A stretch of DNA of 64,000 bases, taken from the NCBI GenBank assembly GCA_033720975.1, contig JAWWBL010000001.1:8611-72610 (forward strand). Reading direction: 5' to 3'. Made by a program: the position numbers and the translations under genes. This document shows, piece by piece, positions 9,092 to 54,680 of the stretch. The notes under the pieces were generated by a model. It saw only the letters and a program-made list of their open reading frames with translations. It made no database searches and was not told the origin of the DNA. Origin of the DNA: Acidimicrobiia bacterium (GTDB taxonomy: Bacteria > Actinomycetota > Acidimicrobiia > Spongiisociales > ZC4RG35). How positions within the stretch are numbered: the first letter of the stretch is position 1; each line of letters opens with the position of its first letter.

Positions 9092-9462
9092 ACATTCACT
9101 GGGCTGAGACAGTGTCCGACCAATGGGAGGATGTGAGATCCGAGCTCGCCCGTGCGTTCGAGACCAGCCGCTCCGCGGCGCGGAACGAGGAGTCCTTCGT
9201 TTATGTCGTCCACCACGACGACTTGTTGGGCAGGCGGGGCTACGGAAACGCCATGGTTGCCACAGGGCTGCTCTCTGCCGCGAGGACCGCTGCAATCGAA
9301 GGAGCCCGGAAGGGCTGGACCGCAAACGTGATCGCCTTCGACGACGGGGCTGATCGCGAACAGGTCCAGGCCTGGGCCGAACGCGTCGCTGGAGACTCGC
9401 TCGGCGTCACCGGAGAGTTGATCCGGGTCGGGTCAACCCACCTGGGAAAGGCGCTGCCGTGA
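9088..9462 (+). CDS. Small protein resembling a degenerate C-terminal half of an SDR
   Basis: ATGA overlap with the CoA-transferase stop and a 4-nt overlap with the next SDR gene. YGNAMVATGLLSAARTAAIE resembles the SDR catalytic helix but lacks the Lys. Confidence 0.4.
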   Translation: MNIHWAETVSDQWEDVRSELARAFETSRSAARNEESFVYVVHHDDLLGRRGYGNAMVATGLLSAARTAAIEGARKGWTANVIAFDDGADREQVQAWAERVAGDSLGVTGELIRVGSTHLGKALP

Positions 9463-10157
9463 ATGGCTCGATCGTGGTCACTGGCGCGGCGCGCGGCATA
9501 GGAAGGGCGATCTCGAGCCGGCTTGCCGCCAATCCCTCACTCACCGTCATCGGCGTCGACATCTCACCGGACCTGGCGTCAGTCGACGACATCGTCCCGG
9601 TGCAGACGGATCTGACCAATGACGATGGCGTGGACGCAGTGACTAGAACGGTCGAAGAGAGTGGTTCACCGCTTCTGGGCATCGTCAACAACGCTGGCAT
9701 CACCCGGGACGCCAGACTGGTCAACATGACCGACGAGGACTTCGCGGCCGTCCTCGACGTGAACCTCGGAGCTTCCTACCGACTGTCAGATGCCCTGGCG
9801 CCGCTCATGACCGAGGGAGGCTCGATCGTCAACATCGCCTCGCGCGCCTATCTCGGCAACTTCGGCCAGTTCAACTACTCGATGTCGAAGGGCGGATTGG
9901 TCGGCCTCACCAGGGCGATGGCCCTCTCATTGGCGCCCGGCATCAGAGTCAACGCGGTCGCACCCGGGCTGATCGGCACCGAGATGGCCATGGCGATCCC
10001 AGAAGACGTGTTGGACAAGATGGTCGCGGCGATACCCCTGGGGCGAATGGGATCTCCGGACGAGATCGCAAATGTGGTCTGGTTCCTGCTCACCCCCCTC
10101 TCGTCCTACGTCACCGGTCACGTGCTCGTCGTCGGTGGAGGAAGGTCCCTCAGCTAG
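9459..10157 (+). CDS. SDR-family oxidoreductase (FabG-like)
   Basis: TGAARGIGRAI Rossmann motif, NNAG, and an S...Y...K-like catalytic region (SMSKGGLVGL, PGLIGTEM). Confidence 0.85.
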   Translation: MNGSIVVTGAARGIGRAISSRLAANPSLTVIGVDISPDLASVDDIVPVQTDLTNDDGVDAVTRTVEESGSPLLGIVNNAGITRDARLVNMTDEDFAAVLDVNLGASYRLSDALAPLMTEGGSIVNIASRAYLGNFGQFNYSMSKGGLVGLTRAMALSLAPGIRVNAVAPGLIGTEMAMAIPEDVLDKMVAAIPLGRMGSPDEIANVVWFLLTPLSSYVTGHVLVVGGGRSLS

Positions 10158-10603
10158 TAGTAGAGGCGGGAGAGCCGCTCCGCCACCATCGCCGGCTTCT
10201 CCTGGCCCTCGACCTCTGCGATCACCGTCTGTTTCATGTGAATCCCGCCGGGGACCTCACTGACCTCATCGAGCGTCACCCTCATACGGAGCCTCGAGCC
10301 GACCGGGACAGGGGCGGGAAACCTGACCTTGTCGAGGCCGTAATTGACTCCCATCATCGGGTTGCCGACGTCGAGAGGCACCTCGGCGGCCAAGGCGACG
10401 CTCAGGGACAGGGTGAGGAACCCGTGGGCGATCGTGCCGCCAAACGGTGTCTGAGCCGCCAACTCCGGGTTCACATGTATGAATTGATGATCGTCCGTTG
10501 CTTCCGCGAACGCGTCGACCCGCTCCTGGCTGATCTCATGCCAGGCGCTGGCACCTAGCTCCGTGCCGACCAGGCTTTGGAGTCGTTCCAGTACTTCCTT
10601 CAT
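10154..10603 (-). CDS. MaoC-like (R)-specific enoyl-CoA hydratase / hot-dog dehydratase
   Basis: FIHVNPELAAQTPFGGTIAHGFLTLS is the MaoC hot-dog signature. The track ORF runs to 10831, but the domain starts at MKEVLERL, so I trimmed the start to the ATG at 10603. Confidence 0.7.
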   Translation of the reverse strand: MKEVLERLQSLVGTELGASAWHEISQERVDAFAEATDDHQFIHVNPELAAQTPFGGTIAHGFLTLSLSVALAAEVPLDVGNPMMGVNYGLDKVRFPAPVPVGSRLRMRVTLDEVSEVPGGIHMKQTVIAEVEGQEKPAMVAERLSRLYY

Positions 10604-10693
10604 GAGTCGGATTCTCGCATGCAACAGAGGTTCGGGGCGAAGCGAAGTTTCAGGCATGGCCGCTTCCCCTCGGAGAGCGCTAGCCTTCAGGCC

Positions 10694-10999
10694 ATGGCCG
10701 AGAAAACCAAGTTGATGGTCTGGATCGATCAAGACCTCTGCACCGGGGACGGCATCTGCGAAGAGATCACCCCGGACGTGTTCGTCGGTAGAGACGATGG
10801 GCTGTGGGTGGTCAAAGAGGACGCCAAACACTTCGGTGACACAGTGGTCTTTGACGGCGAGCAGGCCCCAGACGGCGCGCGTGGCATGGCCCGAGTGCCT
10901 GACTCACTGATCGAAGACGTGATCGAGTCGGCCGAGGAGTGCCCCGGAGAGTGCATCATGATCGAGCCCTTCCAGGAGTCAGCCGTCCACAGCGGCTGA
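10694..10999 (+). CDS. Ferredoxin (single-cluster Fe-S)
   Basis: IDQDLCTGDGICEEITPDVF ... ECPGECI cysteine pattern. Start trimmed to MAEKTKL at 10694, inside the longer track ORF. Confidence 0.65.
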   Translation: MAEKTKLMVWIDQDLCTGDGICEEITPDVFVGRDDGLWVVKEDAKHFGDTVVFDGEQAPDGARGMARVPDSLIEDVIESAEECPGECIMIEPFQESAVHSG

Positions 11000-20675: not shown

Positions 20676-22238
20676 ATGGCTTTCAAAATCACATACGCAA
20701 CGATGTCGGCCGACAACGAGGAGCTGAACACTGCGTACGAGAAGGCAGTGGTTGAGGTCGAGTCGAAATTGGGCCAGACCCACGGGGTCATAGTCGACGG
20801 CGAGTCACGCACCGATCGCGAGCTCTACGAGGAGTTGTCCCCGCTCGACCGAGACATCCTCGTCGGACGCTATGCCCAGGCGACCGAAGAGGACGTTGAT
20901 GATGCGGTGGCAGCGGCGAAGCGGTTCGGGCCTGAGTGGGAGAACGTGGGGTGGGAGGCGCGGAGAGATCTGATGCTCCGTGCCGCTGACATCATGGAGG
21001 AGCAGACCTTCGAGATATCCGCGCTCATGTCCTACGAGATCGGGAAGAGCCGTCTCGAGGCGCTGGGAGATGTCGCGGAAACGGTTGAGTTCTTCCGCTA
21101 CTACTCGAGCCAGATCACCGACCACGACGGATTCGAGATCGAGCTGAACGCGCTCGGCCCCAACGAGAAGAACACCTCGGTTCTCAGGCCCTACGGCGTG
21201 TGGGCCGTCGTGGCGCCGTTCAATTTCCCGATGGCCCTGGCAGCGGGCCCATCCATCGGCGCGCTGATCACAGGAAACACCGTTGTGCTCAAGCCTTCCA
21301 ACACCGGCGCCCTGATGGCTTTCGAGTTCTATCGGGTAATGCGCGAGGCCGGCCTGCCTCCTGGCGCTCTCCACATTCTCTCGGGCGCGGGGAGTGTCGC
21401 CGGGGAGTTGCTGACCCACCACGACGACGTGGACGGCATCACCTTCACGGGGTCCTATCCGGTCGGCATGCACCTGCTGAACACGGCGAGCGCCAAGCGG
21501 CCCAAGCCCGTCTCTTGTGAGATGGGTGGGAAGAACCCCGTCATCGTCACCAAATCCGCCGACCTCGACACGGCCACCCAGGGGATCATCAGGGGGGCTT
21601 TCGGGCTTAGCGGTCAGAAGTGCAGCGCCACCTCCCGGGTATACATCGAAGACGACGTATACGACGAGATGGTCGACCGTATCGTGGAGGCGACGGAGTC
21701 CCTGAAGGTGGGAAGCCCCTTTGAACGGGACACCTTCACTGGTCCTGTCATCGATCGACGAGCAGTCGAGCGTTTCCAACGCTCCGTCGAGGAAGTCGAG
21801 AAGTCGGGCGGCGAGGTGCTCGCCGGTGGAGAGGTCCTCACCGACGGCGACCTCGTAAGGGGGTACTTCGTCGAGCCGACCGTGGTGACGGCACCCCTCG
21901 ACTCGTGGATCTGGCGCGAAGAGCTCTTCATGCCGTTTCTCACGGTCACCAAGGTCAGAAGCCTCGATGAGGGCATCGCCCTCTCCAACGACACTGAGTT
22001 CGGCCTCACAGCAGGGCTGTTCTCCAGCGATGACGAGGAGATCGAGAAGTGGTTCTCCCGCATTCAGGCGGGGGTGACATATGTCAACAGGGCCGCCGGC
22101 GCGACCACCGGAGCGTGGCCAGACATTCAGTCCTTCGGAGGATGGAAGGGATCGGGAACCTCAGGAGCGGGTGGTGGCGGTCCGTGGTATCTACGTCAAT
22201 ACCTCAGGGAGCAGTCCCGCACCCTGATCAGGCCCTAA
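20676..22238 (+). CDS. L-glutamate gamma-semialdehyde (1-pyrroline-5-carboxylate) dehydrogenase, ALDH superfamily
   Basis: The N-terminal pattern through ETVEFFRYYSSQ parallels RocA/PruA-type P5CDH. ALDH catalytic region FGLSGQKCSATSR and a nucleotide-binding GSxxVG-like motif are present. Confidence 0.75.
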   Translation: MAFKITYATMSADNEELNTAYEKAVVEVESKLGQTHGVIVDGESRTDRELYEELSPLDRDILVGRYAQATEEDVDDAVAAAKRFGPEWENVGWEARRDLMLRAADIMEEQTFEISALMSYEIGKSRLEALGDVAETVEFFRYYSSQITDHDGFEIELNALGPNEKNTSVLRPYGVWAVVAPFNFPMALAAGPSIGALITGNTVVLKPSNTGALMAFEFYRVMREAGLPPGALHILSGAGSVAGELLTHHDDVDGITFTGSYPVGMHLLNTASAKRPKPVSCEMGGKNPVIVTKSADLDTATQGIIRGAFGLSGQKCSATSRVYIEDDVYDEMVDRIVEATESLKVGSPFERDTFTGPVIDRRAVERFQRSVEEVEKSGGEVLAGGEVLTDGDLVRGYFVEPTVVTAPLDSWIWREELFMPFLTVTKVRSLDEGIALSNDTEFGLTAGLFSSDDEEIEKWFSRIQAGVTYVNRAAGATTGAWPDIQSFGGWKGSGTSGAGGGGPWYLRQYLREQSRTLIRP

Positions 22239-23308
22239 CCCTCCTGGAGTCTGATGGTGAGCCCGTCCGGATCGATGATCTCGAGATAATCCTCTCGTGC
22301 GTCTGGTACGACCCCGATCGTGCCCAGATGGTCCTTCCAGCGGCTCAGATCTTCCACCTGAAAAACGAGGGCCTCGGGCCGGTTTGAAACACCTTCTATC
22401 AATTCGATCTGACGACCCTGACTCGCTTCGACCACCGCGGCGTCGCCATCCCGACTCCGCGGGACCCGGGTGAACCCGAGCTTGTCGATGTAGAAATCGA
22501 TCGCCTGCTCCATGGAGCTGACGCCAATCGCGGTTCGCACTGCCGTCACCCCACCTGGAGCGACCGACGGCCCTCGCCCCGCCAGGACCTCCTTGGCCTC
22601 TTCGACCGTGAACCTCCCTGCCGTCACTTCGCGGCCCACGACGACCGCCCCCAGACGGCGGCCGGAGCTTTCGAGCTGAGTGAGCCTCGTGAGGTCCTCG
22701 AGGTTGCGGACTCCCCCGGAGGCAATCACCGGCTCCTCGACGATGTCCATCGCCTCGGCAAGGATCCGGTAATTGGGTGGTTCGGAGAGGGCGTCGCGAC
22801 CCGCCTCGGTTATGAGGAAGGCAACAGCGCCGGCCGAGGACATCTCGATGAGGACCTCTTCGAGGAATCGACCGCTGTTCTTGGTCCATCCTCGTGTCGC
22901 CAGCTCGTCGTTGTCCCGAACGTCGAGCGAGACGGCGATCTTCCCGGGATGATCCCGGCAGAGGTCCCACACCATCAGCTGGTTCTCGATGGCGGCGGTA
23001 CCCATGACGATCCGCCAGGCGCCGAAGTCGATGAGCCGTTCCGCTTCGCCCTCGGAGCGCACGCCACCGGCGAGCTGGACCGGGATGTCTACCGATTCGA
23101 CGATCCGCGAAAGCAGTTCTCTGTTGCGGTAGTCGCCGTACGCGGCAGCATCGAGATCGACGATGAGGAGGGCGTCCACACCCTGCTGCTCCCAGTTCTT
23201 GGCACGGCTTATCGGGTCGTTGTCGAGGGGGATCGCGTCGGAGATGTCGCCGTGTGGGAGCCGCACCGAAAGCCCACCGAGAATGTTGATGCGGGCATAC
23301 AGATCCAT
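22235..23308 (-). CDS. HisA/PriA-like (beta/alpha)8 isomerase fused to a C-terminal VOC/glyoxalase-like domain
   Basis: MDLYARINILGGLSVRLPHGDI ... VDLDAA ... IPVQLAGGVRS ... VIASGGVRNLEDL follows the HisA layout. C-terminal ~110 aa (MEQAIDFYIDKLGFTRV ... LEIIDPDGLTIRLQE) are glyoxalase/VOC-like. The track ORF runs to 23896; that N-terminal stretch is a non-coding-like extension. An alternative ATG lies at 23332. Confidence 0.65.
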   Translation of the reverse strand: MDLYARINILGGLSVRLPHGDISDAIPLDNDPISRAKNWEQQGVDALLIVDLDAAAYGDYRNRELLSRIVESVDIPVQLAGGVRSEGEAERLIDFGAWRIVMGTAAIENQLMVWDLCRDHPGKIAVSLDVRDNDELATRGWTKNSGRFLEEVLIEMSSAGAVAFLITEAGRDALSEPPNYRILAEAMDIVEEPVIASGGVRNLEDLTRLTQLESSGRRLGAVVVGREVTAGRFTVEEAKEVLAGRGPSVAPGGVTAVRTAIGVSSMEQAIDFYIDKLGFTRVPRSRDGDAAVVEASQGRQIELIEGVSNRPEALVFQVEDLSRWKDHLGTIGVVPDAREDYLEIIDPDGLTIRLQEG

Positions 23309-23360
23309 GAAGAGACCGTACCGGCCCTTCATTTCTACCGGGTTAACAAGGTCGAAACTG

Positions 23361-23415
23361 CAAACCTCAGGTAGGTAGCGCCCTATACGGGCGCTAACAG
23401 TCTCAAGAAAGCGGA
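23361..23415. repeat. 55-nt intergenic hairpin element, copy 1 (core GTAGCGCCC-TATAC-GGGCGCTAC)
   Basis: Near-identical to 52311..52365, with 4 mismatches over about 55 nt. Lies downstream of the Nfo-PolDom gene and upstream of the HisA-VOC gene. Confidence 0.7.
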
Positions 23416-25221
23416 TCAGGCGATCCCGAGCGCCTCTTCGGCAGCGTCGAGGGTCTGGCCTCCGTCGAGAACCGGTGCAAACAAGTCGCCGTACCGCTGA
23501 AGCCGGTCCCATAGGTTGGCGATGGTGATCTCGCCGTTTGCCACGGAACCGACCTCGTCCCATGTCAAAGGAACTGATACGGGCGCACCCGGCAGCGGGC
23601 GGACTGAATAGACCGAGGCGACCGTCTGGCCCGAAGCGTTCCGGTTGTGATCGATGAAGACCTTTCCCTTTCGCTTCGGTTTCTCCCAGTCCATCGTGAT
23701 GTCGTCGGGGTTGGCTGCGGCGAGATAGGTACCCACCTCCCCGACGAAACGGCGAACTCTCGAGTAATCGTGCACAGGGTCCAGCGGGACATAGACATGC
23801 AGCCCCTTCGAGCCGGAGAGCTTGGGATATCCCTTGAGGCCCAACTGCCCTAGGGCAACGCTGAGCAGCTTCGCCCCGGCGCACACCTGGTCCCAATCAG
23901 ATCCATCGGCGGGGTCGAAGTCGAACACGGCATAGGAGGGCATTTCGAGTGACCCCTCGGCCGAGTGGAAGGGATGGAACTCGATACACCCCATGTTGGC
24001 GAACCACATCACCGCCTCGGCCGAGTCGGCGAGGAGAAAGTCGATCACCCCACCCTGGGAGTCCGACTCAACCGGAGTCGTCCGCATCCAGTCTGGCTGA
24101 TGGCCTGGAGCCCTCTTCTCATAGAAGGAAGGGCCGCCAATCCCGTCGGGGTATCGCGACATCGAAATCGGACGGCCCGCCAGATGGGGAAGCAGCACTG
24201 GTGCCACCGATGTGTAGTACTGGATGAGGTCGCCTTTGGTGTAACCCTCATCGGGGAAGAACACCTTGTCGATGTTGCTGAACGTGATGGGGCGGTCGAT
24301 GGCAAGAGGCACAAAACGTTCACCATCCTTGGAAACCCTGACTGGGTTGGGAAACTCGATTGGTGCACTTGCCAAGGGACGCCCATCCGTAGCGCCAACG
24401 CTCCCGATGTGAGCCTGGATCTCCTCCCAGATCAGCCCATGGCTGGCGTTGTCTCGCGCCTCGGAGATGAGGACCATCGGCATCGCCATCTGCTCGGCGG
24501 CCCTGATCAATGGCCCGACCCGCAAACTCCCCTCCCCATAAGGGACGTGGCGGATCTCCCCTGACTTGCCGAACTCGTTGTCGGAGAACTGGGCTTGGAG
24601 GGGGGTGATCATCCATCCAGGGAAGCTGTCGCGGACGAAGCTCAACACAGACTCGAAGGCATCCTGGGAGATCAGCCCGCCCTGGGTCATGGCGTGGATG
24701 TGGGCCCAGTCGACCACCGGCCTGACAAATGAGAACTCTGCCGCCAGTTGGGCGATGTCGCCGAGGGAGCCGAACTGGCCCCTGTTGCCAGCCGTCTCCA
24801 GGCCCAGCCCCACCCCAAGGTTCTCGATCTTGGCCGCTATGAATTCGATGCGGGAACGCACGCGATTCATCAGCACGGCGGGCTCCTCCCCATGGGTGGC
24901 GCCAAAGTGAGCAACGATGACCGGTGCCCCCAGGGCACGGCCCAGCTTCATGGTGTGCTCGAGAGCATGGGCCGACTGCCGGCCGCGCTCCTCGTCCTCG
25001 ATGGTCAGGCCAACGAAATATGGGGCATGCACCGACAACCGGATGCCCCGCTCGGCAGCGAGCTCCCCGAATGCCTCGCAACGCTTCTCCTTCCAGGGGA
25101 AACCCTGGGTGAAGGGAAGCTCCAGCGCACGGTGACCGTGCTCAATCAGGCCGTCCAGGAACGAGACGTCATCCCCGTCGTCGGGAGGCAGCTCAGAAAT
25201 GCCGAATCGCAGCGAGAGCAT
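23416..25221 (-). CDS. Fusion protein: N-terminal endonuclease IV (Nfo)-like AP-endonuclease TIM barrel + C-terminal LigD-type polymerase (primase-polymerase, PolDom) domain
   Basis: N-terminus: SVHAPYFVGL, LETAGNRGQFG, VDWAHIHA and RHVPYGEGSL parallel the Nfo metal-ligand blocks (HxSYLINL, ENTAGQG, DTCH, HxxLGEG). C-terminus: KVFFPDEGYTKGDLIQYY, SGSKGLHVYVPL and KVFIDHNRNASGQTVASVYSVRPLPGAPVSVPLTWDEV are hallmark LigD-Pol/Prim-Pol motifs. Confidence 0.8.
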   Translation of the reverse strand: MLSLRFGISELPPDDGDDVSFLDGLIEHGHRALELPFTQGFPWKEKRCEAFGELAAERGIRLSVHAPYFVGLTIEDEERGRQSAHALEHTMKLGRALGAPVIVAHFGATHGEEPAVLMNRVRSRIEFIAAKIENLGVGLGLETAGNRGQFGSLGDIAQLAAEFSFVRPVVDWAHIHAMTQGGLISQDAFESVLSFVRDSFPGWMITPLQAQFSDNEFGKSGEIRHVPYGEGSLRVGPLIRAAEQMAMPMVLISEARDNASHGLIWEEIQAHIGSVGATDGRPLASAPIEFPNPVRVSKDGERFVPLAIDRPITFSNIDKVFFPDEGYTKGDLIQYYTSVAPVLLPHLAGRPISMSRYPDGIGGPSFYEKRAPGHQPDWMRTTPVESDSQGGVIDFLLADSAEAVMWFANMGCIEFHPFHSAEGSLEMPSYAVFDFDPADGSDWDQVCAGAKLLSVALGQLGLKGYPKLSGSKGLHVYVPLDPVHDYSRVRRFVGEVGTYLAAANPDDITMDWEKPKRKGKVFIDHNRNASGQTVASVYSVRPLPGAPVSVPLTWDEVGSVANGEITIANLWDRLQRYGDLFAPVLDGGQTLDAAEEALGIA

Positions 25222-37282: not shown

Positions 37283-37744
37283 GTGTTGCGGCAGGCACAT
37301 CATTCGTACTCTCAGGCCATGGAGGAACGAGGATCTGTCCTGGCCCGCAGGTCGCTCCTGATCATTGGAGTGCTAATGGCTCTTGCTGGCCTTTACATCG
37401 TGGTCCAACCGGTCGATGCCAACGACTTCCAGGGAACCACCGGCGTGGTGTGGTCCGACTTCCAGAATGCCAACCCAGAGCCGGCTGCGTACCTGGAGAG
37501 GGAGGGACGTCTCCTCGGGGTCTCTTTCGCGTTTTTGGGAATCGTGGCGGCCGGGATGTCGGCAACGGTTCTCCGGAGGAACGATCGGAGCGCCTGGATC
37601 GTTGCCTGGTTCCTCCCCTTGACCCTTGCTAGCGCCGCCGCGGTTTTCTTCGGTGGCGACGGTGCGATGCTGGGCGCCTTCTACGCAGTTGCCGCGCTGA
37701 CTGCCGGAACCTTGGTGGCTATCGGAACCCGAACGGCGAGCTAG
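37283..37744 (+). CDS. Hypothetical membrane protein
   Basis: 153-aa ORF with 4 hydrophobic helices. Confidence 0.4.
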   Translation: MLRQAHHSYSQAMEERGSVLARRSLLIIGVLMALAGLYIVVQPVDANDFQGTTGVVWSDFQNANPEPAAYLEREGRLLGVSFAFLGIVAAGMSATVLRRNDRSAWIVAWFLPLTLASAAAVFFGGDGAMLGAFYAVAALTAGTLVAIGTRTAS

Positions 37745-40700
37745 GCCCGAGCCCTTTCGGCCTCCTCGAGTCCCTCGATGTCGTCCAACTGATGCAACAG
37801 TCGGGTCGCGCCAATCCGGGAAGCTGTGGATCTGGCGGCTTCCACTATCTCTGAGAAACGCTGATCCCCCTGATCGACAACCGCAGCAAGGTCGACCCGC
37901 GCTTCGAGCCCCACATACGTCTGGTCATAGCGGTCACAGATCGTCACGGCGGTCGCAAAGTGGTTGGCCGCTTCATCTGGTTCGCCCCTGGCCACGGACA
38001 TGTGCCCCAGGGCTCGAGCTATTCCAGCCTCGGGAAGGCTCCCAGTACCTCGCTCACTACCGTCGATGAGAGCACTGATCCTCTGAGTCTCGCCGAGCGA
38101 GGCGAGCGGTCCCGTCACGTATGGGATAAACATGTCTCGGTGAATGCCGATCGCATCCGATCCGAACCGGTCAGCAAGTGTGAGCATCCGTGACGTGTCG
38201 GCCGACGGAGCGAAGACGGTCACACCGAGCGCAAGGGTTGGACCCAGCGTCTGCTGCTCCCCGGTGCCGGTCGCGAAGGCAATGTGCTCATCCCACTCTC
38301 GACGGACATCCTCTCCCCGAACGAACCTCATCCAGTTCCTTTGAATCCTTATAACCTGACCCGCCTGGCTACCGCCGCGTTCGTCATCCGACCGAATCAG
38401 CTCGTTCGCGAGCGACATGCTCTCGTCCCAGTCACCGGTCCATAGGAGAATCTCCGACTTCGTCAGCTTCGCCCACTCCTCATTGGTGGGCAGGCCGCGC
38501 TCGACCGAGATTGCGAGTGCCTCGTCGATGAGCGGAACCGCCCGAGCGGGCGAACCGACCATGTAGTGGAGCGTGGCGAGATTGTTTCGGATCCGCATCA
38601 TCAGACCGGAGAAGTTGCCCTCATCCGCCATCTGCATGGCGCGCATCATCCCGTCGAAACCCCCATCTCCCTGCCAGTATGAGGAACGGGCTAGGAACTC
38701 GGCCTTATTCTCCGCCGATCCGTGGGCCTCTATCAGTGGGGCAATCCGCTTGCTCTCCGGCAGAGACTCGGCCGTGTCGCCCTTGAGGTCGAGGAGTGTG
38801 TAGCGGTTGAGCATCGCCTGCGCCTTTGCTTGGCTATCAGGCCGGTTTGAGAGAAGGCGGGCCGCCCGGTCCGCCTTCTCGAACGCCTCGTCGACCTCCC
38901 CTCTCCACCAGAGCCAACTCGACATGTCTCCCAACGCGAGGGCTTCGCCCTCGCGATCATCGGCCTCGTGGAACAGCCGAACTGCCTCGTCGAGCAGGCG
39001 CAGCCCGCCATCCACATCGTCCTGGTCAAGCACCCCTATCCATCTGAGGGCCTCGGCTCGGTCCAGTGGGGACATCGCGGCTTCTGCAGCCTTGTGGTAA
39101 TAGGCTATTCCTCGGCGCGGATCTAGCTCCCTTGCGCGCTCAGCGGCCTGCATGAGGGCTCGATAGGCACGCTGCCGGAGCTCCTCATCTGGGTCCTGGG
39201 TAAGGGTTATGGCCTCTCCCAGGTGATAGGCGAGTAGCTCCGATACGTCAACGACTCTCTCTCCGCTGACCGTCTCGATCCATCTGGCTGTCGCCTGGTG
39301 GAGATGTGCCCGGTCGTCTCGGGCCAGACGCCCATAGGCCACGTCCCTCACCAGGGCGTGAACGAACGCATATTCCTCTTGTCCGTGCATCGACGGGTCG
39401 CGTATTGGCCGGATCAGCTCTCGGCGCATCAGCTCACGCAAGGCCCCTCGCGAGTGAGAGGACGGCCTCAGCGCGGCAACCGCGCCCGACCAGAAGACCT
39501 TGCCCACAACTGCCGCAGCTTGAAGAAGGTCCTTCTCCTCACCCTCGAGAAGGTCCAAGCGGGCCCCGATGATGGCCTGGACCGAGTCCGGCAGACCGAG
39601 ATCGCTGATTCGGCCGGCTTCGTCTAGCAAGTTCGCCTCTTCTGCCAGCCGAACGAACTCGGTCACGTAAAGAGGGTTTCCGCCTGCTTTCTCGAGGATC
39701 ATCTGCTGGGAGTCGGCAGGCAGCACAGCCCTCTCGAGAAGTGCGGCAAGAAGCTGAGCGGCGGCGGCGTTGGCCAGCGGGGAGAGCGTCAAAGTTACTG
39801 CGTTCCGAACTCCTCCCCCCCAATCAGGCCGACTCGACAAAAGCTCAGGCCGAGCGGCTGTAACCAGGAGGATCGGCACATCGATCGCCCATTCGGCGAG
39901 ATGCTCCAGGAATTCCAGCAGGGCATCGTCGGCCCAATGAATGTCCTCAACCACCAGCACGAGAGGGTTTTTCTGGGCCATGGCACTGAAGAAACGGAGC
40001 CATGCCGAGAACAGCTCGCCTTGCTCGACGGATTGGTCATCGGTGAAAGTGCCCGCCAAAGGGGAAAGACGTCTCTGCACCCATTCTGCCTGTGCCTCCT
40101 CGGCGATGAGGCTCACCACCGCGTGTCGCAGCTTGCGGCTGGCTTCCTCATCGGAATCAGTCTCCAGGATCCCTGCTTGGGCCTTGACGATCTCACCAAG
40201 GGCCCAAAAGGTGATGCCCTCTCCGTAGGGCAGGCAGCGACCCTGTTTCCACCACAGGACGTCCGGCATCCTGTCGAGGACCGCTTTGAACTCGTGGAGA
40301 AGCCGACTCTTTCCGGAGCCTGGCTCGCCAATGATCGTGATCATCTGGACTGTCGAAGCCGTTTGGGTTCGATGAAGCGAGTCAACCAAGACCGCTAACT
40401 CCCGGTCCCGGCCGACAAACGGGCCCTTGTGGCGCTCCGTGACCGCAACCCCCTGGCGCGCCCTGGCGTGGGTCGCTTGCCAAATCGCAATCCGTGCGGC
40501 CTTTCCTTTCAACTCGACCGATTCGAGGTCGACGAACTCGATGGCGGCTCGGGTCGCCAGGTAGGTGCGCTCATCGACGACTATCCCGCCTTCGGGAGCC
40601 ACCGCCTCGAGCCGGGAAGCAGTATTGACGACATCGCCCACGATCGACTCCCGGTCCTTGTTGTCCGGATCGAGCTGGACGATGGCCTCCCCAGTAGTGA

Positions 40701-41196
40701 CGGCGATGCGCACGGATAGCCCGAGATCAGGCTGAGCCTCGTTGAGGGCGCCAATTTGCTCCTGGATTCGAAGCGCTGCGCGCACAGTGCGCTCCGGGTC
40801 ATCCTCATGGGCGGTGGGTACACCGAACACGGCGAACACACCGTCACCCATGAGCTTTTCGACCTTCCCACCGTGAGCCTCTACCTGCTCACGGACTGTG
40901 CGGTGATACACGGTCAGGCGCGCCCTGACGTCTTCAGGATCGGATCGCTCGGTCCTCGCGGTGAAGCCGGCGAGATCGGCGAACAGCACCGAAACCAGTT
41001 TCTTCTCCTCGGCGGCGCGATGGGCATCGTCAGGCTTGGAGGCGAGAGACTCCCCACAGTTGGCGCAGAACTTCGCACCCGGCGCGGCCTCGGCGCCGCA
41101 GTTGGGGCAGGCGCGGGCCAGTGACGATCCGCAATTCGCACAGAACTTTGCGCCCTCCGCTGCCTCTGCACCACAGGAAGGGCAACTGACATTCAC
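37741..41196 (-). CDS. Multidomain signalling protein: tandem zinc-ribbons + class III adenylate/guanylate cyclase + STAND/AAA NTPase + TPR repeats (1151 aa)
   Basis: N-terminal CPSCG...CANCG x2. Cyclase block SVLFADLAGFTARTE ... KLMGDGVFAVFG. Walker A IIGEPGSGKSRLL and Walker B LVLVVEDIHWAD. The C-terminal ~600 aa are helical TPR-like repeats. Confidence 0.85.
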   Translation of the reverse strand: MNVSCPSCGAEAAEGAKFCANCGSSLARACPNCGAEAAPGAKFCANCGESLASKPDDAHRAAEEKKLVSVLFADLAGFTARTERSDPEDVRARLTVYHRTVREQVEAHGGKVEKLMGDGVFAVFGVPTAHEDDPERTVRAALRIQEQIGALNEAQPDLGLSVRIAVTTGEAIVQLDPDNKDRESIVGDVVNTASRLEAVAPEGGIVVDERTYLATRAAIEFVDLESVELKGKAARIAIWQATHARARQGVAVTERHKGPFVGRDRELAVLVDSLHRTQTASTVQMITIIGEPGSGKSRLLHEFKAVLDRMPDVLWWKQGRCLPYGEGITFWALGEIVKAQAGILETDSDEEASRKLRHAVVSLIAEEAQAEWVQRRLSPLAGTFTDDQSVEQGELFSAWLRFFSAMAQKNPLVLVVEDIHWADDALLEFLEHLAEWAIDVPILLVTAARPELLSSRPDWGGGVRNAVTLTLSPLANAAAAQLLAALLERAVLPADSQQMILEKAGGNPLYVTEFVRLAEEANLLDEAGRISDLGLPDSVQAIIGARLDLLEGEEKDLLQAAAVVGKVFWSGAVAALRPSSHSRGALRELMRRELIRPIRDPSMHGQEEYAFVHALVRDVAYGRLARDDRAHLHQATARWIETVSGERVVDVSELLAYHLGEAITLTQDPDEELRQRAYRALMQAAERARELDPRRGIAYYHKAAEAAMSPLDRAEALRWIGVLDQDDVDGGLRLLDEAVRLFHEADDREGEALALGDMSSWLWWRGEVDEAFEKADRAARLLSNRPDSQAKAQAMLNRYTLLDLKGDTAESLPESKRIAPLIEAHGSAENKAEFLARSSYWQGDGGFDGMMRAMQMADEGNFSGLMMRIRNNLATLHYMVGSPARAVPLIDEALAISVERGLPTNEEWAKLTKSEILLWTGDWDESMSLANELIRSDDERGGSQAGQVIRIQRNWMRFVRGEDVRREWDEHIAFATGTGEQQTLGPTLALGVTVFAPSADTSRMLTLADRFGSDAIGIHRDMFIPYVTGPLASLGETQRISALIDGSERGTGSLPEAGIARALGHMSVARGEPDEAANHFATAVTICDRYDQTYVGLEARVDLAAVVDQGDQRFSEIVEAARSTASRIGATRLLHQLDDIEGLEEAERARA

Positions 41197-48875: not shown

Positions 48876-48904
48876 GCAAAGCGGCTGCCCCTGTATGATT
48901 CAGT

Positions 48905-48998
48905 CCGACGGGAGCTCGGTGAGACCGGGCTGAGAGGGAGCCTCAAGGCTCCGACCGACAGAACCTGATACGGGTAATTCCGGCGCAGGGACCCAGGC
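48905..48998 (+). ncRNA. TPP (thiamine pyrophosphate) riboswitch, THI-box
   Basis: GCUGAGAGGGAGCCUCAAGGCUCC ... GAACCUGAUACGGGUAAUUCCGGCGCAGGGAC matches the THI-element consensus (CUGAGA; ACCUGAUCNGG..AAU.CCGGCGNAGGGA). Sits immediately upstream of the thiB RBS AGGAGGA. Confidence 0.85.
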
Positions 48999-49021
48999 TC
49001 ATCGCTCCCAAGGAGGAGAAG

Positions 49022-50062
49022 ATGAGACTGTCCAAACTCACCGCGATCGGGATCTCGGCGCTGGCATTGGCCATAGCTGCCTGCTCAGCCGAACAGGCTC
49101 CTGGCACCCTCACCCTGATCGCCCACGACTCTTTCGCCGACGGGGTGACCGAAGACACCTTCGCCGCATTCACAGAAGAGACCGGCATTCGAGTCGAGGT
49201 CCTGGCTGCCGGCGATGCCGGTTCGATGGTCAACCAAGCCGTGCTTTCAAAAGGAAATCCCCTTGCCGACGTCCTGTTCGGAGTCGACGACACCTACCTA
49301 TCTCGGGCTCTCGATGAGGAAATCTTCAGGGTGTACAGGTCCACTGAGGTCGACAAGGTTCATCCGGAGCTGGTCGACACCCAATATCGGGTCACGCCGA
49401 TCGACTACGGCGATGTCTGCATCAACTACGACACGGCATGGTTCGAGTCGACCTCGATCGCGGTTCCGGAGCGTCTGGAAAGTCTGCGTGCCGAGCTCTA
49501 CGCGAGCCACCTGAGCGTGGAGCACCCTGCAACCTCCTCGCCCGGACTGGCCTTCATGTTTGCGACCATTGCCGAATTTGGAGAGGAGGGATGGCTGGAT
49601 TTCTGGGCTGACCTGAGAGATGGCGGTGTTCGCGTGGCATCCGATTGGACTACTGCCTACTACACGGACTTCCTCACACATGGCGGCCCCTCCAGCATGG
49701 TGGTCTCCTACGCGTCCTCGCCGCCAGCCGAGGTGGTTTTCTCGGAGGAGCCGATCGACAGCCCTCCCACGGGTGTGATCGAGGCCGGGTGCTACCGGCA
49801 GGTCGAATATGCCGGGATCCTGGCCGGGACCCAATATCCGGCGGCGGCTGGGAAGCTGATCGACTTCATGCTCTCGCTCGAGTTCCAGGAGCAGATTCCT
49901 CTCTCCTGGTTCGTGTTCCCCGCCAACCAGGACGCCCAGCTCCCATCGGTGTTCGCCGAACACGTCGTGATACCCGACGATCCGGCGCGCCTGTCGCCGG
50001 CCTACATCGCGGAGAACCGGGACCGCTGGATCGATGAATGGATACAGGTGATGGAAGGCTGA
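49022..50062 (+). CDS. thiB: Thiamine ABC transporter substrate-binding lipoprotein
   Basis: Signal peptide/lipobox LAIAACS. Family-1 SBP with thiamine-binding-protein-like blocks (DVLFGVDDTYL). Context is the TPP riboswitch and a ThiP-like permease. Confidence 0.8.
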   Translation: MRLSKLTAIGISALALAIAACSAEQAPGTLTLIAHDSFADGVTEDTFAAFTEETGIRVEVLAAGDAGSMVNQAVLSKGNPLADVLFGVDDTYLSRALDEEIFRVYRSTEVDKVHPELVDTQYRVTPIDYGDVCINYDTAWFESTSIAVPERLESLRAELYASHLSVEHPATSSPGLAFMFATIAEFGEEGWLDFWADLRDGGVRVASDWTTAYYTDFLTHGGPSSMVVSYASSPPAEVVFSEEPIDSPPTGVIEAGCYRQVEYAGILAGTQYPAAAGKLIDFMLSLEFQEQIPLSWFVFPANQDAQLPSVFAEHVVIPDDPARLSPAYIAENRDRWIDEWIQVMEG

Positions 50063-51612
50063 GACGCTCGATACGGTGGGGTTGGGTGGGGGTCGCCACC
50101 GTCCCCGCGCTCTTCGTCGGCTACTTCTTTGCCTACCCGGTCGTCCGGATCCTCGATGTGGGCCTCTCCGAACTGAGCATCGGGGCCTCCGGGCTGCAGG
50201 CACGGCTGCTCAGGGTGGGGTGGTTCACCCTTTGGCAGGCGTCGCTGTCCACCGTCCTGACCCTTCTGGCGGCGACCCCACTCACCTGGGCTGTGTCCTC
50301 ATACGAGTTCAAGGGTCGTCGTCTCGCCACCGCTCTCGTAGCTGTCCCCTTCGTCCTCCCGACGGTGGTGGTCGGCACCGCGTTTCTGTCTCTCGGCTTC
50401 GTCCAATCGATCGGATCGATCCTCGCCGCCCACGTCTTTTTCAACGTGGCGGTCGTGGTGAGAACTGTCTCGTCAGTCTGGTCCAGGATCGACCCTCGGC
50501 TCATCGAAGCTGGCCGAGTCCTCGGCGCCGGCCCCTGGCAGACCTTTCGCCTTGTGACGCTGCCCTTGCTGCGGCCGGCAATCGCCGCGGCGTCTTCGAT
50601 CGTCTTCCTTTTCACATTTACGTCCTTTGGGGTAGTTCTGATCCTCGGTGGCTTCCGCTTCGCCACCTTGGAGGTCGAGATCTATCGGCAAGCCGTGAAC
50701 CTCTTCGACCTTCCTCTGGCTGCTTCGCTGGCGATAGTCCAACTGATCGGGGTCACCACCGCCCTCTACGTCTACTCCCGCTATCAGGAGTCGAGATCGG
50801 CGTCATGGGAAGTTGCCGGTGCCCGCCTCCTCCCAAGGCCTCGGGGAGCAATGAGATGGCTTGTCGGATCGGTGGTGATCGCCAGTCTTACCGTGCTCAT
50901 GGCCCCGTTGATCTCCCTCTTCTCTGACAGCCTGGGCCGAGGGTTCTACACGGGTCTGTTCGGGTCTGATGCGGTGGTCGGCAGCCCGATCGCGTCGGTC
51001 GGTAACAGTCTCCGATTCGCCGCCATCGCCACGCTCATTTCGACAATCGTTGGCCTGATGGCGGCTGCGGCGATATCCGCCCGCCGAGGAACCCTGTCCA
51101 AGTGGTTCGACATGCTCCTGATGCTTCCTCTGGGCACATCAGCGGTGACGATCGGTTTCGGATTCATTGTGGCACTCGATTGGCCTGTGGATCTGCGCGC
51201 ATCGTTCTGGCTGATACCAATCGCGCACGCATTGGTCGCCGTCCCGTTCGTGGTGAGGACAACGCTTCCCACCCTGCGGTCGATCCGCCAAGAGATGCGG
51301 GACGCGGCGGCAGTACTGGGGGCTTCCCCATGGAGGGTGTGGCGGCAGATCGACCTGCCCATCGTGAGTCGAGCAGCCATGGTCGGCTCCGGGTTCGCAT
51401 TTGTCGTCTCTCTCGGTGAGTTCGGAGCGACGTCGTTCGTCGCCCGTCCCAACATCCACACGGTGCCCACCATGATCTTCAGGCTGCTGGGACGTCCCGG
51501 CGAGGTGTCCTTCGGGATGGCCATGGCTCTCTCGGTTCTCCTCGCTGCGATCACCGCTGGTGTCGTCATGTGGCTGGACCGAGCTCGCGTGGGAGAGTTG
51601 GGGAGGTTCTGA
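50038..51612 (+). CDS. thiP: Thiamine ABC transporter permease (two fused permease domains)
   Basis: 12 TM helices. Two EAA-like permease signatures (EAGRVLGAGPWQTFRLVTLP; RDAAAVLGASPWRVWRQIDLP). Confidence 0.85.
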   Translation: MDTGDGRLRRSIRWGWVGVATVPALFVGYFFAYPVVRILDVGLSELSIGASGLQARLLRVGWFTLWQASLSTVLTLLAATPLTWAVSSYEFKGRRLATALVAVPFVLPTVVVGTAFLSLGFVQSIGSILAAHVFFNVAVVVRTVSSVWSRIDPRLIEAGRVLGAGPWQTFRLVTLPLLRPAIAAASSIVFLFTFTSFGVVLILGGFRFATLEVEIYRQAVNLFDLPLAASLAIVQLIGVTTALYVYSRYQESRSASWEVAGARLLPRPRGAMRWLVGSVVIASLTVLMAPLISLFSDSLGRGFYTGLFGSDAVVGSPIASVGNSLRFAAIATLISTIVGLMAAAAISARRGTLSKWFDMLLMLPLGTSAVTIGFGFIVALDWPVDLRASFWLIPIAHALVAVPFVVRTTLPTLRSIRQEMRDAAAVLGASPWRVWRQIDLPIVSRAAMVGSGFAFVVSLGEFGATSFVARPNIHTVPTMIFRLLGRPGEVSFGMAMALSVLLAAITAGVVMWLDRARVGELGRF

Positions 51613-52307
51613 TGCTCGAAATCGACCAGATCGACGTCTCCATCGAGGACACACCAATACTCCGTCAGGCCGACCTGACGGTCGGGAACGGTGAGGTCGT
51701 GGGACTACTGGGACCATCTGGATCGGGGAAGTCGACACTGCTGAGGGCGGTGGCGGGTCTCGTCGACGTGGCGTCGGGTGACATCCGCTGGGATGGCGCA
51801 TCGCTCCTCGATGTGCCTACCCACCGTCGTGGGCTCGGACTCATGTTCCAGGGGTACGCACTTTTCCCTCATCTGGATGTGGCACAAAACGTGGGGTTCG
51901 GGCTGCGCATGCAACGGAACGCGACTCCCGGCCCCCTGATATCCGAGGCTCTCGAGATGGTCGGGCTGGCGGGCTACGAGAATCGAGAGGTCGACTCGCT
52001 CTCGGGCGGGGAGAAACAGCGCGTGGCCCTCGCCCGGACTCTCGCCCCGCAGCCCCGATTCGTGATGCTCGACGAGCCCCTCGGAGCCCTGGACCGAAAC
52101 CTGCGGAGGATGCTGATGACCGAGATGAGGGAGATACTCACCGAGCGAGAGGTCACCGGGATCGTCGTCACCCATGATCGGGACGAGGCGGTTGCCATGG
52201 CCGACCGTTTAGCCCTCATGAGGGAAGGGACCATTGTTCAGACCGGCACTCTGTCAGAGATCCTGGACCGTCCGGCGAACGACTGGGTCCGCGCCTTCGT
52301 CTCCTGA
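51612..52307 (+). CDS. thiQ: ABC transporter ATP-binding protein (thiamine importer ATPase)
   Basis: Walker A GPSGSGKST, signature LSGGEKQRVALAR and Walker B FVMLDEP. Start at the ATG 51612, preceded by GGGAGG. Confidence 0.85.
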   Translation: MLEIDQIDVSIEDTPILRQADLTVGNGEVVGLLGPSGSGKSTLLRAVAGLVDVASGDIRWDGASLLDVPTHRRGLGLMFQGYALFPHLDVAQNVGFGLRMQRNATPGPLISEALEMVGLAGYENREVDSLSGGEKQRVALARTLAPQPRFVMLDEPLGALDRNLRRMLMTEMREILTEREVTGIVVTHDRDEAVAMADRLALMREGTIVQTGTLSEILDRPANDWVRAFVS

Positions 52308-52310
52308 TCG

Positions 52311-52365
52311 CAAACCTCAGGTAGGTAGCGCCCTATACGGGCGCTACCGGTCTCAAGAATGCCGA
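52311..52365. repeat. 55-nt intergenic hairpin element, copy 2; probable bidirectional terminator
   Basis: Immediately follows the thiQ stop, between convergent genes. Same CAAACCTCAGGTAGGTAGCGCCCTATACGGGCGCTA..GTCTCAAGAA sequence as copy 1. Confidence 0.7.
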
Positions 52366-53669: not shown

Positions 53670-54680
53670 ATGAAGGCGTGGCAGCTGACCGACACCAACG
53701 GCATCGACTCCTACGTGCTCAATGACGTGCCCGAGCCCGAACCCGGGCCGGGGGAGGTGAGGGTTGACATCAAGACCGCTGGGCTCAACCACCTCGACAT
53801 CTGGGTGTCGATGGGTCTCCCCGCACCCGAGCACCTTCCACACACCACGGGGGCTGACGCCGCGGGGACCATCGACGCCATTGGCGAGGGTGTCGACGGA
53901 TTCGAGATCGGCGACGAGGTGATAGTCGATCCCTCTCTGTCGTGCGGACGCTGCGAATTCTGTCTCAATGACGACATCGTCTACTGCGAGGACTTCGGGA
54001 TTCTCGGTGAGCACGCCCCGGGAACCTTCACAGAGAAGATCGTGATCCCCACGATCAACGCTGTCAGGAAACCGAAGAGGGTCGAATGGGAGGAAGCCGG
54101 AAGCTTTGGGCTGGCCAATGTCACCGCTCTGCGGAAGCTCGAGAAGGCAAGGCTGAGCAGAGGCGAGGTGGTGCTCGTGGTTGGGATCGGTGGAGGAGTC
54201 GCCACCGCCTCGATGCAACTGGCGATGGCGTTCGGAGCCAAGGTCTACGTCACCTCCCGATCCCAGAAGAAGATCGACTGGGCCGTTGAGAACGGCGCGG
54301 CGGGCGGATTCGACTCGGCCGGCGAGTTCGGCAAAGAGATGGCTGCTCTGGGTGGAGCGGACCTCATCATGGAGAACGTCGGGCCAGCCACCCTCAAGCA
54401 GTCGATGCGGGCTGCCAAGAAGGGGGGACGCATCGCCATCTCAGGTGGGACCAGCGGATCGAGATTCGAGCTCACCATCCCGATCCTGTTCTTCCGCCAA
54501 CTGGAGCTCGTGGGATCGTCCATGGGCAACCATGCCCAGTTCGCCAGGGCCCTCAACTGGATCAGGCTTGGCAAGGCCAAGGCAATAGTCGACCGCGTGT
54601 TCCCCTTCGACCAGCTACCCGAGGCGCTTCGTTATCTGGACTCGGGCGAGCAGATCGGAAAGGTCGTCCTAGCCCGCTAG
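53670..54680 (+). CDS. Zinc-binding alcohol dehydrogenase / quinone oxidoreductase (MDR superfamily)
   Basis: MKAWQL start, GEVRVDIKTAGLNHLD, structural-zinc Cys cluster CGRCEFC, and the Rossmann motif VVLVVGIGGGVATAS. The track ORF beginning at 53136 is a spurious extension overlapping the thioesterase. Confidence 0.8.
   Translation: MKAWQLTDTNGIDSYVLNDVPEPEPGPGEVRVDIKTAGLNHLDIWVSMGLPAPEHLPHTTGADAAGTIDAIGEGVDGFEIGDEVIVDPSLSCGRCEFCLNDDIVYCEDFGILGEHAPGTFTEKIVIPTINAVRKPKRVEWEEAGSFGLANVTALRKLEKARLSRGEVVLVVGIGGGVATASMQLAMAFGAKVYVTSRSQKKIDWAVENGAAGGFDSAGEFGKEMAALGGADLIMENVGPATLKQSMRAAKKGGRIAISGGTSGSRFELTIPILFFRQLELVGSSMGNHAQFARALNWIRLGKAKAIVDRVFPFDQLPEALRYLDSGEQIGKVVLAR

Follow-up and report, generated by a model that had tools for sequence, protein, structure and literature searches.

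The subject of this work is a gene on the reverse strand of a 64,000-nucleotide stretch of DNA from an Acidimicrobiia bacterium (assembly GCA_033720975.1, contig JAWWBL010000001.1, positions 8,611 to 72,610), here referred to as the window; all coordinates given below are those of this stretch. The gene encodes a HisA/PriA-like (beta/alpha)8 barrel fused to a VOC domain, and its product is identical to the NCBI entry MDX1467734.1, named 'HisA/HisF-related TIM barrel protein [Acidimicrobiia bacterium]'. It belongs to a discrete, uncharacterised, Acidimicrobiia-wide family of HisA/PriA paralogues, for which we use the name N8 barrels after the Asn that stands at the place of the catalytic general base. 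The family is almost certainly not the isomerase of histidine biosynthesis that acts on N'-[(5'-phosphoribosyl)formimino]-5-aminoimidazole-4-carboxamide ribonucleotide (ProFAR) or phosphoribosylanthranilate (PRA). The gene, its two domains and the codons that matter most for this conclusion are the following:

22235..23308, reverse strand: HisA/PriA-like barrel and VOC fusion gene, 357 amino acids (aa), stop codon at 22235-22237
22574..23308, reverse strand: (beta/alpha)8 barrel, residues 1-245, from Pfam and full-length alignments to PriA structures
22238..22573, reverse strand: linker (GPxxAPGG) and VOC domain, residues 246-357, from Pfam, profile, AlphaFold and Foldseek
23285..23287, reverse strand: Asn8 codon AAC, site of the catalytic general-base Asp (PriA D11, Salmonella enterica HisA D7), from the alignment
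22793..22795, reverse strand: Asp172 codon, equivalent of the second catalytic Asp after strand beta6 (Streptomyces coelicolor D171, Mycobacterium tuberculosis D175, S. enterica D176), from the alignment
22628..22630, reverse strand: Glu227 codon, end of strand beta8, from the alignment

The Pfam model His_biosynth (PF00977) matches residues 7-226 of the window protein (E=1.6e-48, 165.6 bits), and the barrel aligns over its full length with the PriA structures 4wd0, 4u28 and 1vzw (phmmer, E about 1e-38). A HisA-type barrel carrying a C-terminal VOC domain at 22235-23308 had been read from the sequence beforehand, and the open reading frame (ORF), Pfam, the profile, AlphaFold and Foldseek all agree with it. 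Nevertheless, every HisA/PriA equivalog model scores the protein under its cut-off: TIGR00007 gives 159.5 bits (cut-off 228.95), NF010112 148.4 bits (cut-off 243) and TIGR01919 142 bits (cut-off 306.45). The barrel is poor in the full-length AlphaFold model, which has a shallow alignment and a predicted local distance difference test score (pLDDT) below 50 over much of residues 127-242; Foldseek with this model returned HisA/HisF structures alone, with a root-mean-square deviation that is meaningless.

Active-site residues were compared in an alignment of 123 family members, 223 canonical HisA/PriA sequences and the PriA of S. coelicolor. The catalytic pair named for M. tuberculosis PriA consists of two aspartates, D11 and D175 (PMC13055916). 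In the phmmer alignments to the PriA structures, Asp11 of the PAVDV motif pairs with Asn8 of the window protein (ARINIL). The D11 position is occupied by Asn in 122 of the 123 family members and by Asp in 219 of the 223 canonical sequences, and Asn8 is also found in all 74 additional family sequences obtained from metagenomes. The second catalytic residue is present in the window protein as Asp172; this position is Asp in 116 and Asn in seven of the 123 family members, and in seven relatives both acid/base positions are Asn. Thermotoga maritima HisA and M. tuberculosis PriA are not known to retain detectable activity once the general-base Asp is replaced by Asn. According to the titles of the PDB entries, crystals of the D11N and D7N variants contained bound ProFAR or its isomerisation product, phosphoribulosylformimino-5-aminoimidazole-4-carboxamide ribonucleotide (PRFAR). 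The family is unlikely to isomerise by the HisA-type Amadori mechanism, because the general base is Asn throughout and both positions are Asn in 7/123; judging from the alignment, it very probably carries out no Amadori rearrangement of ProFAR or PRA.

Asn8 is accompanied by further family-specific replacements. In S. coelicolor numbering, T166 (Thr in 219/223 canonical sequences) is Ala or Ser in the family, with Thr in four members including the window protein; G172 (Gly in 220/223) is Ala; T173, otherwise Thr or Met, is Leu; S200-S201 (window residues 201-202), canonically Gly/Ser-Thr/Ser, is Arg-Asp/Asn; and A224 (Ala in 216/223) is Glu in 123/123, corresponding to Glu227 of the window protein. 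Ala173-Leu174, directly after Asp172, is thus specific to the family, where canonical enzymes have Gly-Thr. Unchanged are Arg19 (window Arg16), Asp130 (window Asp129), Trp141 and mostly Asp171. The N-terminal phosphate site is fully canonical, with window residues G81, G82, R84, G103 and T104 at the places of PriA Gly82, Gly83, Arg85, Gly104 and Thr105. R85 and T105 are described as the distal phosphate grippers and W145 as the stacking residue for ProFAR (PMC13055916; PMC9088769). The Gly-rich motifs of both phosphate sites (G81-G82/G103 and G198-G199/G225), noted already in the original prediction, are indeed present and invariant; at the C-terminal site, however, only the GG and G motifs themselves are kept, and the residues next to them are the non-canonical A173, L174, R201, N/D202 and E227. 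The changes thus appear to cluster in the half-site that would hold and turn over the reacting phosphoribosyl group, and the nucleotide-like half appears intact. The window protein has a few individual traits as well. The codon for residue 48 (23165-23167) encodes Leu, where 121/123 family members and 221/223 canonical sequences have His (PriA His50), and Thr167 and Asn202 are shared with the distant member P0122.

The fusion is not a stand-alone oddity: it belongs to a class-wide family that also exists without the VOC domain. At least 207 matches were found in GTDB species genomes, and all 80 that were inspected are metagenome-assembled genomes (MAGs) of Acidimicrobiia type. More than 120 full-length homologues are 67-85% identical to the window protein. 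N8 barrels share 47% identity or more with one another (median 63%) and 46.6% at most with canonical HisA/PriA (median 38%). A search of 1.84 billion cluster representatives returned few family clusters; the E-values then fall off from E-99 for the family to E-46 where canonical HisA sets in. The ORF is intact over its full length in 80 GTDB species and 74 metagenome contigs, and 130 columns are invariant in an alignment of 50 VOC-fused relatives. The family is under purifying selection. A metagenome scan seeded with distant family members delineated three architectures:

VOC-fused barrel, about 357 aa: 30 loci
Barrel with a conserved helical tail of about 45 aa, about 290 aa in total: 32 loci
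Bare barrel, about 245 aa: 12 loci

The signature N8, A173, L174, R201, D/N202 and E227 is common to all three architectures (74 further sequences). The VOC domain is an accessory of one branch and a few scattered other members, and the core function resides in the barrel; since bare-barrel and helical-tail forms exist, the VOC domain is probably dispensable for it. No description of the N8 barrel family was found in the literature. Family members are named ProFAR isomerase by JGI/IMG and 'HisA/HisF-related TIM barrel protein' by NCBI, and the former name is probably a functional over-annotation.

The position of the gene outside any his or trp operon, proposed from the sequence, holds: a Pfam scan of 54 ORFs of the window, among them the gene and those beside it, found no his or trp gene, and tblastn with HisA and HisF queries revealed no second HisA/HisF-like sequence in the 64-kb window. 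The roughly 170 related loci are likewise devoid of hisH, hisF and a second barrel. A canonical relative, serving as control, is located in a hisD-hisC-hisB-hisH-hisA-hisF operon. Asn8, the scores below the cut-offs and the loci outside his operons together support a diverged paralogue and not the housekeeping enzyme. To this extent the proposal of a recruited paralogue stands; its further part, an isomerase for another aminoaldose, is only one of several options.

The C-terminal region is a VOC domain, as had been predicted. Pfam Glyoxalase (PF00903) matches residues 258-330 with E=2e-4 and 22.2 bits, which is above the cut-off of 20.6 and borderline for the single sequence. A profile built from 24 relatives found TnmS-type proteins and Escherichia coli glyoxalase I among the PDB sequences (E about 5e-7). 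The AlphaFold model of residues 246-357 has a mean pLDDT of 87.9, the expected order of strands and helices and the paired beta-alpha-beta-beta-beta modules of the fold, and Foldseek superimposes it on VOC structures with template-modelling scores (TM-scores) of 0.7-0.82. The assignment is firm because the profile matches, the confident model and the superposition coincide. The metal site of such domains, in turn, is not retained. In the alignment with E. coli GloA, conserved residues stand at the places of the ligands His5 (Arg258) and Glu56 (Glu302), and variable ones at those of His74 (Ala313) and Glu122 (Arg352); only one of the four glyoxalase I ligands is thus kept. With three of them lost, a GloA-like metal site cannot form and a metal-dependent VOC reaction is not expected. 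The best TM-scores are to TnmS3 (0.82, 0.81) and TnmS1, which are metal-free antibiotic binders, and the lowest profile E-values belong to this group too; the Foldseek E-values to TnmS are no better than those to FosA, FosB and glyoxalases.

The surroundings of the gene contain the following features:

23416..25221, reverse strand: AP_endonuc_2 and LigD primase-polymerase fusion gene, 601 aa, upstream neighbour (Pfam)
20676..22238, forward strand: aldehyde dehydrogenase gene, 520 aa, convergent downstream neighbour (Pfam)
23315..23320, reverse strand: -10-like hexamer TACGGT, 6 nucleotides (nt) before the ATG, spacing conserved in orthologues
23360..23415, unstranded: 56-nt repeat, copy 1, in the intergenic spacer, with a perfect 8-bp hairpin TAGCGCCC-N5-GGGCGCTA and an ACCTSAGGT box
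52310..52365, unstranded: 56-nt hairpin repeat, copy 2, 3 nt after the stop codon of an ABC-transporter ATPase gene

The two flanking genes had been called a pyrroline-5-carboxylate (P5C) dehydrogenase and an Nfo-PolDom fusion. An aldehyde dehydrogenase and a LigD Prim-Pol fusion they are, but the more specific names do not hold equally well. The best model for the former is L-glutamate gamma-semialdehyde dehydrogenase, below its cut-off, and the label "Nfo" is loose: the N-terminal barrel of the upstream fusion is xylose-isomerase-like, it scores 34.8 bits with TIGR00587 (cut-off 129.65), and the solved sequences closest to it are a xylose-isomerase-domain protein and UvdE (E about 1e-3). Identity between species is higher in the polymerase part, at about 82%, than in the HisA-like gene, at about 68%. 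The HisA-like and aldehyde dehydrogenase genes overlap tail to tail by 4 nt (22235-22238), and therefore no terminator is possible between the two. The Pfam scan of the 54 ORFs revealed neither Ku nor an ATP-dependent ligase in the window, and the PADLOC defence models matched neither the HisA-like gene nor its neighbour.

The linkage to the polymerase fusion is conserved. Among the loci of the VOC-fused clade that include upstream DNA, the HisA-like gene directly follows a co-oriented AP_endonuc_2/LigD-polymerase gene in 75/75 GTDB and 27/27 metagenome loci, with spacers from 22 nt upwards (median 67 nt); the convergent gene on its other side is usually the aldehyde dehydrogenase gene. Two distant lineages have the pair as well, L006 on a 1.03-Mb contig with unrelated flanks and L088 with a methyltransferase gene inserted between the two (L numbers denote our loci). 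Other branches have different neighbours: a short-chain dehydrogenase/reductase gene and an inosine monophosphate (IMP) dehydrogenase gene in L003-L005, and a divergent ABC ATPase with FUR in the 290-aa group. The small ORF downstream of the barrel in the 290-aa group was considered as a hidden VOC domain and rejected, as it encodes a membrane-anchored acidic protein. Several bare barrels (L169, from the complete 2.21-Mb genome CP129495.1 at 9145-10738, L139, L147 and L158) have a PIG-L family deacetylase gene 38-73 nt upstream on the same strand, possibly an operonic partnership different from that of the VOC-fused form. At one of these loci, L147 (6292-6732), a separate Glyoxalase_6 VOC gene lies 15 nt downstream of the bare barrel, and at another single locus, L160 (3815-4681), a fructosamine kinase gene lies about 680 nt downstream. 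As Rosetta-stone support for the link between barrel and VOC domain these cases were set aside as anecdotal, the VOC protein of L147 being of a different VOC family and L160 likewise being one locus; they hint at a sugar-amine or carbonyl theme.

The HisA-like gene is apparently transcribed from its own -10 element as a leaderless mRNA. Of 75 distinct upstream regions of orthologues, 72 have the pattern TAnnnT with a spacing of exactly 6 nt to the ATG, against a background of 0.0009 per position, and an actinobacterial -10 element this near to the start codon is a mark of leaderless transcripts. The spacing supports the start at 23308 over the upstream ATG chosen in some annotations (P0002, P0399), and its conservation implies an own promoter even where the spacer is as short as 22-24 nt. 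A scan for E. coli-type promoters and terminators yielded nothing above chance.

A hairpin repeat of 55 nt had been reported in the 5' region of the gene. The repeat is real and recurs, although it is 56 nt long and lies in the intergenic spacer rather than in the gene, with copy 1 beginning directly after the stop codon of the polymerase-fusion gene and its hairpin spanning 23376-23396. The stem is GC-rich and of 8-9 bp, the loop is TATA-like, and the ACCTSAGGT box comes after the hairpin. Relatives of the hairpin and box occupy the same spacer in L026, L031, L036, L039, L057, L059, L061, L068 and L079. No Rfam family covers the repeat; it looks like a repetitive extragenic palindromic (REP) or terminator-like element. 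In some genomes the spacer has been expanded by tandem hairpin-containing units (399 nt with about four units in L051, 186 nt with two in L009), and in L042 a 1.6-kb insertion lies between the two genes. Copy 2 closes an ABC transporter operon (49022-52307; solute-binding protein, permease and ATPase) that is preceded by a thiamine pyrophosphate (TPP) riboswitch at 48898-49010 (57.5 bits). Elsewhere in the window there are two proteins with adenylate/guanylate cyclase domains, both on the reverse strand: one of 1151 aa with zinc-ribbon, cyclase, AAA and TPR domains (37741-41196), and one with the cyclase domain fused to an alpha/beta hydrolase (54677-56023).

The family shares with HisA/PriA (EC 5.3.1.16; the bifunctional PriA also EC 5.3.1.24) the His_biosynth (beta/alpha)8 fold at 35-41% full-length identity, the distal phosphate grippers, the stacking Trp, Arg19, Asp130 and mostly Asp171/175. 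It differs in the Asn at the general base, the altered proximal pocket, the VOC and other tails, the lack of a his operon and the scores below the cut-offs. Other actinobacterial HisA/PriA homologues that occur beside the canonical enzyme or replace it, namely SubHisA, SubTrpF, SubTrpF2 and AdeK, described by the Barona-Gomez laboratory, also have conserved active-site substitutions and in some cases new genomic contexts (PMC13055916; PMC5404923). However, SubTrpF2 and AdeK are stated there to keep Asp11, Asp130 and Asp175 and to carry out one isomerisation still, while the N8 family is devoid of the general base (PMC13055916). In the searched passages of the same 2026 survey of PriA expansions in Actinomycetota, Acidimicrobiia figure only as the source of one HisA seed sequence, from Acidimicrobium ferrooxidans (PMC13055916). 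The closest counterparts at the decisive position are the engineered variants D11N of M. tuberculosis PriA and D7N of S. enterica HisA (PDB 2Y88, 5AHI and 5A5W), which have the identical substitution at the same position. These are laboratory mutants of true isomerases, whereas the N8 family has the Asn by nature and without variation, along with five other changes specific to it. As to the VOC domain, the enediyne-binding TnmS1-3 and bleomycin-binding proteins have the same small two-module fold without a His/Glu metal site, but here the domain is fused to a barrel and located outside any biosynthetic or resistance cluster, and the E-values are no better than those to FosA, FosB and glyoxalase I. 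Glyoxalase I (E. coli GloA, PDB 1F9Z) shares the fold and the Glu56 equivalent, E302, which is conserved, while the equivalents of His5, His74 and Glu122 are Arg258 and two variable residues.

On balance we favour the view that the N8 barrels are neo-functionalised, possibly non-catalytic, barrels for a phosphoribosyl ligand. A phosphoribosyl, nucleotide-like ligand would still be bound, its nucleotide-like phosphoribosyl moiety docking in the conserved distal half-site, and the rebuilt proximal half-site (Ala173, Leu174, Arg201-Asp/Asn202, Glu227) would then serve something other than an Amadori rearrangement. The chances are about even that this is a new reaction using the constellation of Asp129, Asp172, Glu227 and Arg201, and binding without turnover is a less probable outcome that still deserves weight. 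The metal-less VOC domain would most likely act as a module for dimerisation or accessory ligand binding. That N8, D129, R201 and E227 are strictly invariant even in a barrel of 245 aa without further domains speaks for catalysis. The conserved neighbour hints at a role in damage or stress physiology.

Several points weigh against this view. The interchange of Asp and Asn at position 172 argues for hydrogen-bonding roles, and the sequence is compatible with an enzyme as well as with a mere binder. The closeness in space of N8, R201, D202 and E227 is deduced from barrel topology, in which they would be placed at the ends of strands beta1, beta6, beta7 and beta8. Paralogy within one genome is likewise something we infer: tblastn with HisA and HisF as queries retrieved nothing but the family gene from the window and the roughly 170 loci, and no adjoining blocks of NCBI accessions were found between fusion and canonical proteins. 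Finally, the link to DNA repair is weakened by the promoter of the gene itself, the hairpin between the genes in the window and the different neighbours in other branches.

The strongest competitor is a non-catalytic pseudoenzyme, that is, a natural trap for ProFAR, PRFAR, 5-aminoimidazole-4-carboxamide (AICAR) ribotide (ZMP) or a similar compound, which would function as a sensor, a sequestering protein or a scaffold, with the VOC domain for dimerisation or as a second pocket. We regard it as rather unlikely, though worth serious consideration. The Asn at the general base recalls the D11N and D7N proteins with their trapped ligands, Asp and Asn interchange at the second catalytic position too, the distal half-site for the nucleotide phosphate is preserved, a metal site is lacking in the VOC domain, which is most similar by TM-score to the antibiotic-binding TnmS3 and TnmS1, and one distant member is directly followed by a gene for IMP dehydrogenase. 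Bare 245-aa barrels without an output or partner domain are nevertheless common and fit an enzyme better than a sensor, and R201, D202 and E227 are as invariant as catalytic residues typically are.

According to a second alternative, the protein is an accessory factor of the AP-endonuclease-like/LigD-polymerase protein (AP, apurinic/apyrimidinic) and recognises or processes damaged sugar phosphates, for instance 5'-deoxyribose phosphate, ribonucleotides or adducts of the glycosylamine type, at abasic sites or the ends of DNA. This appears improbable. In its favour are the strict co-directional adjacency in all VOC-fused loci that include upstream DNA, with spacers down to 22 nt, and the persistence of the pair in L006 with unrelated flanks and in L088 with one inserted gene, to which can be added the reported cooperation of LigD with the AP endonuclease Nfo on abasic sites (PMC4770248). 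A 2'-deoxyribose substrate would, moreover, be barred from the Amadori step and would make the general base dispensable. The conserved promoter element and the hairpin after the upstream stop codon weaken the strict operon argument, and the conserved adjacency stands; in addition, the neighbour is missing in other family branches, the window has no Ku or ligase gene, there is no sequence sign of DNA binding, and known defence and repair models (PADLOC) give no match. Any role alongside the repair-type neighbour, for which position is the evidence, is a long shot. Improbable as well is the specific version in which the converted barrel serves, as an enzyme or as a receptor, the chemistry of sugar phosphates or glycosylamines beyond the synthesis of amino acids and works with the LigD-polymerase neighbour on lesions of the abasic-site or 5'-deoxyribose-phosphate type; in that case the Amadori step would be impossible and the general base unneeded, and the carboxylate would have moved from beta1 (Asp to Asn8) to beta8 (Ala to Glu227).

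That the gene is simply a housekeeping HisA/PriA with an odd C-terminal tail, in which Asn, perhaps aided by Glu227 on the neighbouring strand, supports ProFAR isomerisation, is very improbable. The barrel is of full length, the ProFAR-binding residues are mostly conserved (R16, R84, T104, D129, W141, D172), no canonical hisA turned up for the same genome in the window or the related loci, and relatives carry the ProFAR isomerase label of JGI. Against these stand the Asn at the general base in 122/123 members and at both catalytic positions in seven, the scores under every equivalog cut-off, the remodelled proximal phosphate pocket, the absence of hisH/hisF beside the gene in about 170 loci, in contrast to the locus of the canonical relative, and the lack of known activity in the Asp-to-Asn forms of T. 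maritima HisA and M. tuberculosis PriA. A decaying, functionless relic of a duplicated hisA, which could account for the loss of the catalytic residue and of the VOC metal ligands, is effectively refuted by the conservation pattern, namely intact ORFs in more than 150 independent genomes and contigs, 130 invariant columns among 50 VOC-fused relatives and replacement residues that are themselves invariant.

Returning to the favoured view of a converted phosphoribosyl-ligand barrel, its most direct consequence concerns the metabolic reconstruction of Acidimicrobiia MAGs, which can score the HisA step as present on the basis of a protein that is very probably unable to perform it. The invariant adjacency to the LigD polymerase in the VOC-fused clade is a testable lead, based on positional evidence only, to an accessory function in actinobacterial DNA-end or abasic-site repair. 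A natural, class-wide clade has fixed the same Asp-to-Asn substitution that is used in the laboratory to trap ligands, together with defined compensating changes. As HisA/PriA is a model system for the evolution of specificity, the N8 barrels provide a ready case of TIM-barrel neo-functionalisation or pseudoenzyme formation.

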